Positions 24,746 through 27,771 of a stretch of DNA of 64,000 nt are shown here, in pieces. The number at the start of each line of letters is the position of its first letter. Position 1 is the stretch's first letter. Origin of the DNA: an uncultured delta proteobacterium (lineage in GTDB: Bacteria; Desulfobacterota; RBG-13-43-22); the NCBI GenBank assembly GCA_963790475.1, contig CAWBOS010000012.1, positions 992,001 through 1,056,000 of the forward strand, in the 5' to 3' direction. A model generated the notes under the pieces. It saw nothing but the letters and a program-made list of their open reading frames with translations, ran no database searches and was not told the DNA's origin. Made by a program: the position numbers and the translations under genes.

Positions 24746-25028
24746 CTTGAATCCTTTATAGACGCTGAAAATTTTGACCATTACTGAATATTGCAGCAGA
24801 AAAATGATGTTGGTCAAACAGAGAGGAGGGTATTTGCTGGGCCAAAGACAAGAGGCGAATTGGCAATGAAATAAGATAGAATATAAACTCGTAAGGTAAC
24901 CACGGCTCCAATAATTCAATTTTTTCCATTCTTAAAACCAGTCCCCAGTTAGGGAGGGATGTTTTTCAGAAATTGTATTTTGTTTTTTATTGTGTTTTGG
25001 TAATCGGCATCTTGTGAAGGGATATAAT

Positions 25029-25331
25029 ATGACATTATTAGCTCATTTTTTTGCTGCTGTGTTTTTTGTAAATGGGGTTCCTCATTTTGTACACGGGGTT
25101 TCTGGACAATCGTTCCAAAGCCCCTTTGCCAGCCCACCAGGAGTTGGAGAATCATCTTCTATAGTCAACGTGCTTTGGGGATCATTCAACTTTATCGTTG
25201 GGTACGTTTTACTTTTTTGTATCGGAAGTTTCCATATGGCTCCAAATTTGGATACTCTTGTTACCACTATCGGTGGACTTTTAACTGCGCTTGCTTTGTC
25301 CTGGCACTTTCAAAGGGTTAGAAGCAAGTAG
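25029..25331 (+). CDS. Small hypothetical membrane protein
   Basis: Three hydrophobic segments; NGVPHF and PFASPPGVGESS motifs; ATG 25029 follows aaggga. Confidence 0.75.
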   Translation: MTLLAHFFAAVFFVNGVPHFVHGVSGQSFQSPFASPPGVGESSSIVNVLWGSFNFIVGYVLLFCIGSFHMAPNLDTLVTTIGGLLTALALSWHFQRVRSK

Positions 25332-25648
25332 ACAAGCACCGCAGGATATTCCTTTTTGAAAGCGTCCTTAGGTGCATTATAGAAGAGGAACAAAAATGAA
25401 TCATGGTGGGTTTTAATGGAAAAGGTTTTTGGGGATCTCTGCGGCCAAAGCCAGAATTTCTCGCTCTACTGGGATACCATTGACCAAGAGCGGGAGGGAA
25501 AGGAAGCTGGGGAGGATAGTCAGCGGGGGTGAACTTGATCAATCATATAGTTCTTCTGGGATCAGGATATTGGGGCCGGAAAGATTTGTCGTGAAATGAA
25601 AATCCCAGATAGAGAAATCTGCCGCCCTTGATGGCCCTTTCCGCCCAA

Positions 25649-25819
25649 TTAAACACCTCCAGCATAATTAACCCCGTGATCCACTGCATAATGGATCATC
25701 TTGATGGCCTCGGGTTCATTGATTTTTGCCTGATCGTTATCGATTACCGGAAGCCGCATAGCCCCGAAACCAAGGGCCGAAACCTGCCAATCAAGTTTAC
25801 CGAAAGGTCGAAACTTCAT
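25649..25819 (-). pseudogene. N-terminal stub of an aldo/keto reductase (not in the ORF track)
   Basis: RBS ggagga then [24 protein letters not shown]...[15 protein letters not shown], ending just before the expected DTA motif. Confidence 0.75.
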
Positions 25820-26125
25820 TGATCAATTCTCCTCCAAAATAGCCACTGAAATGGGTTTGATATTAGTTATTAAGGATTTAAAAGAATATAGACAAAATCT
25901 CAGTACGAGTCAATTCCTATTGATGTTTTGGTGATATCGTTTTAATTGGGTTGGAGAAACAATTTTCTTGAGAACTTAAGTGCTACTTCCTGAAATCTTC
26001 ACTCCTTCATTTCAGAAAAAAGACAAGGGTTCAAAGGATAATTATTAAGTTAACAGTGGAAGCCATGAATTCTGGCCTCGATATTATGGAACGTACTCCC
26101 CTAATGTTCTATCCGAATAATTCCC

Positions 26126-26156
26126 TTGACATTTTCTCTCAATCTGAGTTTATATT
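26126..26156 (+). promoter_or_regulatory. Candidate MerR-type promoter TTGACA-N19-TATATT
   Basis: Perfect -35 box, 19-nt spacer containing a CTCA-atc-TGAG dyad. Confidence 0.4.
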
Positions 26157-26215
26157 TATTTACTAAATAGAAAGTTAACCTCCCAACCAAACCCCGGCCT
26201 TTTTAGGAGTGGGAC

Positions 26216-26305
26216 ATGAAGTGGGAGTATCAAAAAGTACTGATACGAAGCCTCCGTGAGGGATCATCCCCTTATGGAGGTTTTTTATTTTCGACCGACG
26301 TTTGA
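26216..26305 (+). CDS. Putative leader peptide MKWEYQKVLIR... running through a terminator
   Basis: RBS taggag; homologous to 22758-22790. Confidence 0.4.
   Translation: MKWEYQKVLIRSLREGSSPYGGFLFSTDV
26251..26286 (+). terminator. Intrinsic terminator/attenuator upstream of the MerB-like gene
   Basis: cctccgtgaggg-atcatc-cccttatggagg followed by tttttt. Confidence 0.7.
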
Positions 26306-26371
26306 TTTTATTATTATAGGATTGCTGAGAGATTTCAAAGAATTTCCCAAATGATATGAAGGAGTACTATC

Positions 26372-27064
26372 ATGAGTGAACCCAACCGATCTGATAAAAC
26401 TTTTTATATTATCATGAAACGAATGGTGGAGACGGGGGTGGCACCCCACTATACGGAGATAGCGGCGGAGTTAGGGGTTCCTCCAGAGGGCGGTAAAAAA
26501 GCTCTTCAGGATCTTTTCTCCACACCGATGTTCCCTGGATGGTTATATCCAAATACGGATTACATTACTTCTTTTCCACCCTTTAACAACCTTCCCACCC
26601 AGTATCGTTTAACAATTGATGGCCAACAAAAATGGTTCGGTCAATGAGGATTTGAGTCGCTGGCGGTCAGCTGGCTTTTCCCGGGGAAGGTTGTCCGGAT
26701 TGATGCTCCCTGTCTTGACTGTGGATCTCCGATCAAAGTGGAAATGAAAGATGGTGTGGTTGAAAAAACTGACCCAGAAGGTCTTGTTGCCTACACCTGT
26801 GTCCCTCTTCGCGAGTGGTTTAATAACCTGGCCCATTCCTGAAGCACTATGAATCTCTTCCGGTCGGAAGAGCATGTTCGTAATTGGAGCGGTTTCAAAA
26901 CAAACACCGAAGAAGGAATCGTTCCACTGCTTGATATGGCCAGAGGTTTTTCCGGTAATTTTTTTAAGCGCCGTCTGGATCCAGATTATTTTTCTCATAT
27001 GCAGGAATATTTAATGGAGCTGGTCGGAACCTGGAAAGAGATGGGTTCTTTCTGGACACTTTAA
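26372..27064 (+). CDS. MerB (organomercurial lyase)-like protein with two predicted selenocysteines (U92, U157), 230 aa
   Basis: In-frame TGA at 26645 and 26840 with no other stop; WFGQ-U-GFE, CLDC and AHS-U-STMNLFRSEEH match the MerB layout; hairpins follow both UGAs. Confidence 0.85.
26654..26677 (+). promoter_or_regulatory. SECIS-like hairpin 1
   Basis: gagtc-gctg-[gcggt]-cagc-t-ggctt; loop starts 16 nt after UGA 26645. Confidence 0.6.
26849..26875 (+). promoter_or_regulatory. SECIS-like hairpin 2
   Basis: ctcttcc-[ggtc]-ggaagag perfect 7-bp stem; 19 nt separate UGA 26840 from the loop. Confidence 0.75.
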
Positions 27065-27104
27065 GGTTGATAATAACAACGAGTAAGGGGCTCGTCAGAA
27101 ATGG

Positions 27105-27293
27105 CGAGCCGATAGCTTAACGTGTTGAAAACGGATTTGCAATGATTCGAAAAGCCTCTAATTCTTTTGAGTTAGAGGCTTTTTCTTTCTGAGAAATTAT
27201 CTTCTTACAAATGGCAATGATTTAACTATTTATAATTATAGGCTTTAATGTTATATCATAACGGTATTATCAACACGTTAAGCTATCGGCTCG
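27105..27293. repeat. Perfect 24-bp inverted repeat pair enclosing a terminator
   Basis: cgagccgatagcttaacgtgttga (27105-27128) and its exact reverse complement (27270-27293). Confidence 0.85.
27150..27185. terminator. Bidirectional intrinsic terminator after the MerB-like gene
   Basis: aaaagcctctaattc-tttt-gagttagaggctttttct. Confidence 0.75.
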
Positions 27294-27570
27294 TCAAAAA
27301 TGGTCCTGCCTTTTTTATGTGGACTTCGAACGGTATTCGATTATTCCCAGGGTTGTCTGGAAAAAGGATTTGTAGGTGCTACTCGGCAGCCATCAGATAT
27401 ATTGACACGGTCTGTCTGGGGAAATCTCTTTCTAAGGATTTTAGTTGACTTTTTAATTGGGCGAGGATTAAAATTCCTGTGTAATATTAGGCTGTTTTCT
27501 TATCGGCAACCCTTATATAAGGAAGGTATGAGGTTTATACTCCTACCTTACAAGAGGAGCTTTAAAGAAA

Positions 27571-27771
27571 ATGATCCTGCGCGTCCAATACAAAAATGGT
27601 AAGTATGATTACGTCAACCGGCGAACCCTCGATGCTCTCATCAAACAAGAAGCGATCGAACAGTTCTATCGCCCCCAGGAAAAAAAATGGGTCAACATCA
27701 ACATCGATCCGATAAGGGGGAAAGAGAGCATTTTTTACTTTGGAATGGAAAGAAGGCAGTTAACCCTTTAA
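27571..27771 (+). CDS. Small protein, GSU3473-like family
   Basis: MILRVQYKNGKYDYV...LDALI...WV..DPIR...ERR; RBS gaggag (family name from recall). Confidence 0.75.
   Translation: MILRVQYKNGKYDYVNRRTLDALIKQEAIEQFYRPQEKKWVNINIDPIRGKESIFYFGMERRQLTL

Follow-up and report, generated by a model that had tools for sequence, protein, structure and literature searches.

The carbon-metal lyases of the MerB family work with two chalcogen nucleophiles and a carboxylate, which in MerB of plasmid R831b (PDB 3F0O, 3F0P, 1S6L) are Cys96, Cys159 and the proton donor Asp99. MerB2 of Bacillus megaterium (PDB 5C17) is likewise a cysteine enzyme of a mer locus and contains no selenocysteine (Sec). In a section of a preprint, SaoL is described as having one Sec, placed in a Cys-Sec dipeptide, as retaining Cys and Asp in the rest of the triad, and as marking a nine-gene SAO locus (Haft and Gwadz, bioRxiv 10.1101/2022.07.06.499078). 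SaoL is also the only MerB-like selenoprotein in the accessible portions of two reviews from 2022 and 2026, the table of the latter giving “CU” and one Sec, and MerB is not mentioned in the accessible portions of the main texts of the GOS selenoproteome paper, Peng et al. 2016, deep-Sep and BSepDB. A MerB form with two Sec was not found in the literature searched, although it may be listed in supplements, in the BSepDB database or in Haft and Tolstoy 2025 (mSystems). Here we describe a gene for such a form in a 64,000-nt stretch of DNA (the window) from an uncultured delta proteobacterium of the Desulfobacterota lineage RBG-13-43-22 (assembly GCA_963790475.1, contig CAWBOS010000012.1, positions 992,001 to 1,056,000 of the forward strand). 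The gene almost certainly encodes a full-length MerB-fold protein of 230 aa, in which both UGAs would be read as Sec by means of their own selenocysteine insertion sequences (SECIS) within the coding sequence (CDS), so that Sec92, Glu95 and Sec157 take the places of Cys96, Asp99 and Cys159; with the same near-certainty it represents a MerB subfamily of its own, which is stand-alone, multi-paralog, spread through the Desulfobacterota and separate from SaoL. The assignment of both UGAs to Sec rests on six independent lines of evidence, namely the conservation of the TGAs, the SECIS-like hairpins, the constraint on codons, contigs from environmental samples, homologues with Cys, and the Sec machinery together with the genetic code of the genome.

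The reading frame extends on the plus strand from an ATG at 26372 to a TAA at 27062-27064 (693 nt, 230 codons) and is interrupted by two TGAs only, at codon 92 (26645-26647) and codon 157 (26840-26842), with 64 open codons between them. Calling of open reading frames (ORFs) with translation table 11 therefore splits the gene into 26372-26647 (91 aa) and 26849-27064 (71 aa). An initial annotation, made from the letters of the window alone, had joined both pieces by read-through, and its coordinates, residues and spacing, including the C114xxC117 motif, were all correct when the frame was read again. The source genome holds five MerB-family loci, in each of which the frame contains exactly two TGAs, placed at matching positions. 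Across 61 related genomes two TGAs were found at 25 of 28 matching places, while the other three consist of a pair of short N-terminal fragments and a weak match with 26% identity. A scan of species-representative genomes gave at least 563 confirmed relatives, and the best 80 of these, all loci of named genomes, contain 80 U/U gene copies (one locus holds two) and a single Cys/Cys gene. Of 401 genomes sampled evenly from the phylum, 38 carry a two-TGA copy, and two TGAs are present at 46 of 62 places; the other 16 comprise one copy with a TGA and a TAA, three weak matches with one TGA and 12 weak or fragmentary matches without TGA, and all places that score above 170 bits have two TGAs, except for the copy with the TAA. 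Furthermore, four public sequencing runs (two from DNA, two from RNA libraries) show no alternative letter at either TGA codon. Since the reads are without variants and orthologs in other genomes share both TGAs, base-call errors, about which the initial annotation had cautioned, do not account for them.

In bacteria, a SECIS is a stem-loop that lies shortly downstream of the UGA and carries a G in its apical loop, and the loop of Escherichia coli fdhF that is bound by SelB reads GGUC. A hairpin with a GGUC-type loop follows each TGA in all 23 distinct genes that were collected from relatives, with the apical loops starting 20 nt (site 1) and 22 nt (site 2) past the first base of the UGA. At site 1 the stem begins 14 nt past this base, its 6 bp are paired in 100% of the 23 genes, and the 5-nt loop contains GGUC in most copies. 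In the 7-bp upper stem of hairpin 2, 97.5% of cells are paired, the pair 17-32 being UA in 19 sequences and GC in four, and this hairpin folds on its own better than its shuffles (z -2.04). The same regions are constrained beyond the protein that they encode: where two sequences have the same amino acid, the share of identical codons is 0.54 over the whole gene, but 0.84 in codons 95-101 and 0.94 in codons 162-168, and elsewhere in the gene it never exceeds 0.85. Likewise, contigs mapped from many other organisms stack within the gene only at 26641-26702 and 26827-26888, and in run X2 the depth reaches 404 and 750 at these two stretches, compared with about 5-8 elsewhere.

Cysteine and selenocysteine are commonly exchanged for one another at Sec sites, and homologues were therefore inspected at positions 92 and 157. 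Among the 120 database relatives listed, Cys at both sites together with Glu or Asp at 95 occurs in three close full-length proteins (P0018, which is the Cys/Cys gene L087 of the named loci, P0048 and P0049), and many distant relatives beyond this listing show it as well; orthologs thus have TGA or Cys at both positions, the pattern for which the initial annotation had suggested to search. A further 63 of the 120 carry Cys at the first site and stop right in front of position 157, as would be expected of Cys/Sec proteins cut short at a UGA. Similarly, among the best 150 matches of a profile search of 1.84 billion representatives, 40 end near residue 91 and 23 near residue 156. The remaining large group, 51 of the 120, shows Trp at both sites and comes nearly entirely from contigs of about 1-2 kb. 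Trp at these positions had been named beforehand as a finding that would speak against Sec, and the DNA was consulted: of 26 metagenome loci fetched with the Trp/Trp protein P0004, all 21 that cover both sites have TGA/TGA, two cover only site 1 (TGA), and three gave no row. The Trp/Trp entries are thus products of gene callers that chose a code with TGA as Trp.

The source genome has the means to decode UGA as Sec, which the initial annotation had asked to be confirmed: selA, selB, selD and tRNA-Sec are all present. The tRNA-SeC line was the only one with anticodon tca printed in the tRNA search, and selD (C10:1969676-1970587) itself carries one in-frame TGA and hence encodes a Sec-containing SelD. 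Copies of selA are found at C13:443527-444625, in four frame pieces with an internal TAA and TGA, and at C20:712-1809, the intact one being located on a 3.2-kb contig. TGA is otherwise a normal stop in this genome, where 833 of the 2,401 ORFs with at least 300 aa terminate at this codon, and a frame continued past it closes after a median of 13 codons.

The link to MerB that the initial annotation had drawn from residue spacing is borne out by profile and structure comparisons, for which the read-through protein was used with C in place of U. Pfam MerB (PF03243) matches residues 73-189 with 70.8 bits (gathering cut-off 27; E 1.3e-19), well beyond what chance would give, and a phmmer search of the PDB sequences returned matches only to MerB2 and MerB. 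The alignment to solved MerB places U92 on Cys96, E95 on Asp99, U157 on Cys159 and C114 on Cys117, so that at the level of sequence the two chalcogen nucleophiles and the carboxylate coincide with the MerB triad; the carboxylate at 95 (Glu or Asp) is retained in nearly all relatives. The AlphaFold2 model, computed from an alignment of 40 sequences, has a pLDDT of 95.2 and a pTM of 0.91, and all 11 PDB chains found with it by Foldseek at E≤0.001 are MerB or MerB2 (TM 0.49-0.67), followed in rank by weak winged-helix matches to the N-terminal part. Cys114 and Cys117 are invariant in the family and are located in a turn between the predicted strands 107-113 and 120-126.

Compared with MerB itself, the protein is of the same Pfam family and fold with the three catalytic positions aligned one to one, but both catalytic cysteines are Sec, Asp99 is replaced by Glu95, and the protein has in addition an invariant CxxC, the first Cys of which falls on MerB Cys117. 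The identity in the Foldseek alignments is 17-20%, and the cut-offs for MerB proper are not reached (NF033555, 23.9 against 200 bits; PRK13239, 30.3 against 193 bits); indeed, the protein scores below the cut-off of every model of NCBIfam release 20.0. In addition, the genome holds five such loci, with no mer operon and with MerA below its cut-off. A mer-operon MerB is ruled out by the Sec/Glu/Sec residues, the NCBIfam scores, the unrelated neighbours and the lack of a MerA at the cut-off. Among solved structures, MerB2 gives the best match by sequence (E 1e-6) and one of the top matches by fold (TM 0.61-0.67), yet differs as a cysteine enzyme of a mer locus without Sec. With SaoL (NF040728) the protein shares its membership in the MerB family of anaerobes, a Sec at the position of MerB Cys159 and database entries truncated at the UGA. 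It differs from SaoL in having two Sec, Glu instead of Asp, and Ser before U157, so that there is no CU motif; in the 120 listed relatives the position that precedes Sec157 is occupied by A, S, T, R, V, N, M, H or W, and by Cys in none. The SaoL model gives 38.4 bits against a cut-off of 140, and none of the five loci of the source genome reaches it. For SaoP, the highest score in the genome is 98.6 bits, short of the cut-off of 295, and SaoC has no match there, although the latter is a weak blank as the SaoC model matched in no control genome either. SaoL is thus rightly named as a known Sec-containing relative, as it had been in the initial annotation, but the model score, the two Sec, the missing Cys-Sec and the absence of a SAO locus rule out that the protein is SaoL. 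Judged by these sequence comparisons, the two-Sec form is a second, separate branch of MerB-like selenoproteins.

The family occurs widely in anaerobes of the sulfate-reducer type. The best 80 loci derive mostly from metagenome-assembled genomes of Desulfobacterales, Desulfobacteraceae, Desulfosarcinaceae, Desulfatiglandales, Syntrophaceae, Syntrophobacteraceae, Desulfomonilaceae and “delta proteobacterium,” and include single loci labelled Poribacteria, Dehalococcoidia and Acidobacteriota. A tree was built by a quick method with a midpoint root and six distant C...C proteins as outgroup, and many of its forks are unsupported; its group of truncated Cys forms was chosen by length (150-160 aa, every second protein) and includes P0066 with Ser and P0082 with Trp at site 1. 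The U/U, truncated and C/C forms are intermingled on it, and branches with good support require at least seven changes between them; L087, a C/C gene, is nested within a U/U clade. Four of the source-genome paralogs fall into separate clades, each with orthologs in other genomes, which indicates that the duplications are old. The fifth, at C6:349411-350106 (-) (L005), is divergent, with 27 bits to Pfam MerB, two TGAs, U-A-A-D (site 1), U-T-E-C (site 2) and a CAHC that replaces CLDC, and may represent a separate two-Sec lineage of the MerB family. It adjoins a 762-aa ORF that appears sulfatase-like by reading of its N-terminus, as well as hydrophobic ORFs, which may encode membrane proteins. 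At another locus (L064), two double-TGA MerB-like genes from different tree clades are found together within 12 kb.

Since the fold is retained and the triad of two chalcogens and a Glu/Asp carboxylate is retained in the sequence, MerB-like chemistry suggests itself. The two selenolates, Sec92 and Sec157, would serve as ligands to the soft metal or metalloid centre of an organometallic substrate, methylmercury or another organomercurial being the leading candidate, and Glu95 would then donate a proton to the leaving carbon, such that its bond to the metal breaks. The invariant C114xxC117 turn might subsequently take over or release the bound metal, or re-reduce the site. In model chemistry, added S or Se donors are reported to accelerate protonolysis of the Hg-C bond. 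We consider cleavage of a carbon-metal bond, with organomercury as leading substrate, to have about an even chance of being the reaction, and a double-Sec MerB-fold enzyme that performs MerB-like organometal cleavage is, as a whole, the explanation that we somewhat favor.

Several observations weigh against this interpretation, the first of them at the level of decoding. One copy of the phylum sample has a TAA in addition to a single TGA. Hairpin 1 is invariant and hence shows no covariation, and by itself it folds no better than its shuffles (z +0.61; 143 of 200 shuffles as good), so that the case for a SECIS at site 1 rests on conservation. The four sequences with a GC pair in hairpin 2 are orthologs of one paralog and share their clade with four that lack this pair, and the compensatory change may be a single event. 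An Rfam scan of 25000-27600 at E≤10 gave only weak matches at chance level, none of which reached a gathering score, and is uninformative on SECIS. Of the two selA copies, only the one on a 3.2-kb contig is intact, and the contamination of the genome bin is 9.68%; the broken selA is either a decayed duplicate or a mark of this contamination. Parts of the gene are covered by RNA-library contigs (X18, X19), two of which span the first TGA, but these contigs give neither level nor strand, may reflect DNA carry-over and are a hint of expression at most. One could thus ask whether this is a selenoprotein at all, or whether the TGAs are true stops of a decayed or split gene that yields 91 aa, are sequencing errors, or have been reassigned as sense codons for Trp or Gly, as the split frame under table 11, the 51 database proteins with Trp at both sites and the ordinary energy of hairpin 1 might suggest. 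This is highly improbable, because the full frame recurs with its two TGAs and two hairpins in 23 distinct genes from relatives and in the 80 named-locus copies, the synonymous constraint peaks directly behind the TGAs, and the reads are invariant there; moreover, TGA acts as a stop throughout the genome, with frames soon closing behind it, the only tca-anticodon tRNA printed is tRNA-SeC in a genome with Sec machinery, and the supposed Trp codons are TGA on the DNA.

The remaining points against the interpretation concern function. No MerA reaches the cut-off in the source genome (best 353.9 against 454.45 bits), which leaves the fate of released Hg(II) unexplained. The neighbours of the five paralogs are unrelated, and among the roughly 80 named loci any given neighbour is common to at most nine, so that no function can be read from an operon. 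No mer operon was seen among the unrelated neighbours at the loci, where merR, merT and merP had no separate search. The stand-alone and mer-independent character that the initial annotation had attributed to the gene holds up in this respect, and of the mercury genes that it had listed for inspection, merA is absent at the cut-off and hgcA is present (C10:447391-448608 (-), 438.6 bits against a cut-off of 275, NVWCAAGK cap helix, no in-frame stop). Among genomes of the phylum sample hgcA is above the cut-off in 19 of 38 carriers and in 100 of 363 others, by a hand count over genomes that are related and hence not independent; with this modest enrichment, co-occurrence was rejected as a sign of functional coupling. 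Taken together, the lack of MerA and of a mer context, the several old paralogs and the absence of a conserved neighbour argue against a simple role in mercury resistance, and the long retention of the paralogs suggests several substrates or partners instead of a single resistance function. The HgcA of the source genome reads CC in its N-terminal region, at the place of a CU motif that most HgcA proteins have according to a section of the same preprint (Haft and Gwadz, bioRxiv 10.1101/2022.07.06.499078).

The active site itself also leaves room for functions other than catalysis. The bond between Hg and Se is very strong, which could make product release slow and favors holding over turnover. 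A double-Sec MerB-fold protein may accordingly not be a lyase, but bind, buffer or hand off a soft metal (Hg(II), Cu(I), Cd or similar), perhaps with help of the CxxC, since the two Sec and the invariant motif would offer four soft ligands. There is no MerA above the cut-off and there are no mer genes nearby, and MerB has been described, in a passage of the preprint, to bind other metals at its Hg site and to become copper-binding by one residue change (bioRxiv 10.1101/2022.07.06.499078). Nevertheless, the proton-donor carboxylate, which a pure binder would not need, is kept almost everywhere, and four to five old paralogs per genome would be unusual for a simple chaperone, so that we regard metal binding as rather unlikely. 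Alternatively, the MerB fold could have been re-used for redox or carbon-chalcogen chemistry without a metal, where Sec92 and Sec157 pass through a diselenide or selenenyl-sulfide cycle and C114xxC117 serves for resolution or reduction. The motif is invariant, the co-occurrence with hgcA is weak, paralogs occur among metabolic and redox genes (e.g. paralog D, between ORFs that resemble an electron transfer flavoprotein (ETF) and a flavin oxidoreductase by their N-termini), and bacterial selenoproteins are mostly redox proteins (PMC9312934). By contrast, no neighbour is conserved, which makes the redox context anecdotal, the sole relatives in fold and sequence are carbon-metal lyases, and the Cys forms retain the MerB-type pattern of C...C and carboxylate. 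Redox re-use therefore appears improbable, and organometal cleavage by a double-Sec enzyme is retained as the working interpretation.

The features of the locus are compiled in Table 1. With terminator-like hairpins on both flanks, the double-Sec merB-like gene looks monocistronic.

Table 1. Sequence features at and around the double-Sec merB-like gene (positions refer to the window).
Feature	Position	Strand	Description
Terminator-like hairpin and T-run, upstream	26247..26284	+	Sets the gene apart from the preceding unit
Shine-Dalgarno-like AGGAG	26360..26364	+	Probable, from reading of the sequence; 7 nt 5' of the ATG
CDS of putative MerB-family selenoprotein	26372..27064	+	230 aa, Sec92, Sec157, stop TAA; reading frame, Pfam, phmmer, AlphaFold2, Foldseek
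UGA codon 92, read as Sec	26645..26647	+	Aligned with MerB Cys96; TGA in 23/23 genes of relatives and 79/79 locus rows
Glu95 codon	26654..26656	+	Aligned with the MerB proton donor Asp99; E/D in nearly all relatives
SECIS-like hairpin 1	26659..26675	+	6-bp stem, 5-nt loop starting GGU; conservation, synonymous-site peak, read-depth spike
C114-L-D-C117 codons	26711..26722	+	Invariant in the family; located at a turn flanked by two predicted strands
UGA codon 157, read as Sec	26840..26842	+	Aligned with MerB Cys159; conserved TGA; reads without variant
SECIS-like hairpin 2	26848..26876	+	4-bp lower stem, 3-nt bulge, 7-bp upper stem (26855-26861/26866-26872), GGUC loop 26862-26865
Hairpin (15-nt arms) followed by T-run, downstream	27150..27190	+	Likely terminator of the gene

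The likely terminator of the gene is enclosed by a 30-nt inverted repeat (27102-27131/27267-27296, 93% complementary, 135 nt between the arms), which looks like a small MITE-like repeat element. Its arm has 10 copies in the genome at no more than four mismatches, and three pairs of arms share a start-to-start spacing of 165 nt (window 27102/27267, C10:822195/822360 and C12:1185568/1185733). The depth of reads from other organisms also rises at 27075-27136. Upstream of the gene, an ORF-poor stretch of 1 kb (25331-26216) contains a 65-codon frame with one in-frame TGA (25649-25846 (-)), the translation of which resembles the N-terminus of an aldo/keto reductase when read by eye; it may be a gene remnant. 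Paralog D (C10:951123-951803 (-); L004/L043) lies on the same strand as, and between, ORFs that were read by eye as electron-transfer genes: on one side an ETF beta-like and an Fe-S protein, on the other a FixC-type flavoprotein, ETF alpha and a reductase of the old-yellow-enzyme type, all from their N-termini. This arrangement is not conserved at other loci. None of the sequencing runs contained half of the sampled words, and no conclusion on habitat is drawn.

The protein would be a case of Sec having replaced the two catalytic cysteines of an enzyme family, each Sec with its own SECIS inside a gene of 693 nt, and a bis-selenolate site that faces a soft metal would be a direct instance of selenium-mercury chemistry in an enzyme. 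Lists of selenoproteins would be extended accordingly, their MerB-like entry so far being SaoL with its one Sec, as far as the accessible portions of the reviews and surveys extend. The family is common, yet public protein sets show fragments of 91 aa and 155 aa or false Trp/Trp proteins in its place, so that surveys of merB as well as of selenoproteomes would miss or misread it. To our knowledge, genes for the mer-independent degradation of methylmercury in anoxic sediments are not known. For the mercury cycle it matters that the family is found in lineages that methylate Hg and that the source genome itself has hgcA. We tentatively raise the possibility, going by sequence features, that the family acts as a mer-independent degrader of methylmercury or other organometals in anaerobic and often Hg-methylating Desulfobacterota, with a bis-selenolate MerB that operates without MerA and with paralogs specific for different substrates. 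If this were true, it would be a long-sought enzyme, which has been hidden from surveys of mer genes by the splitting of its annotation at two UGAs or by mistranslation with Trp.

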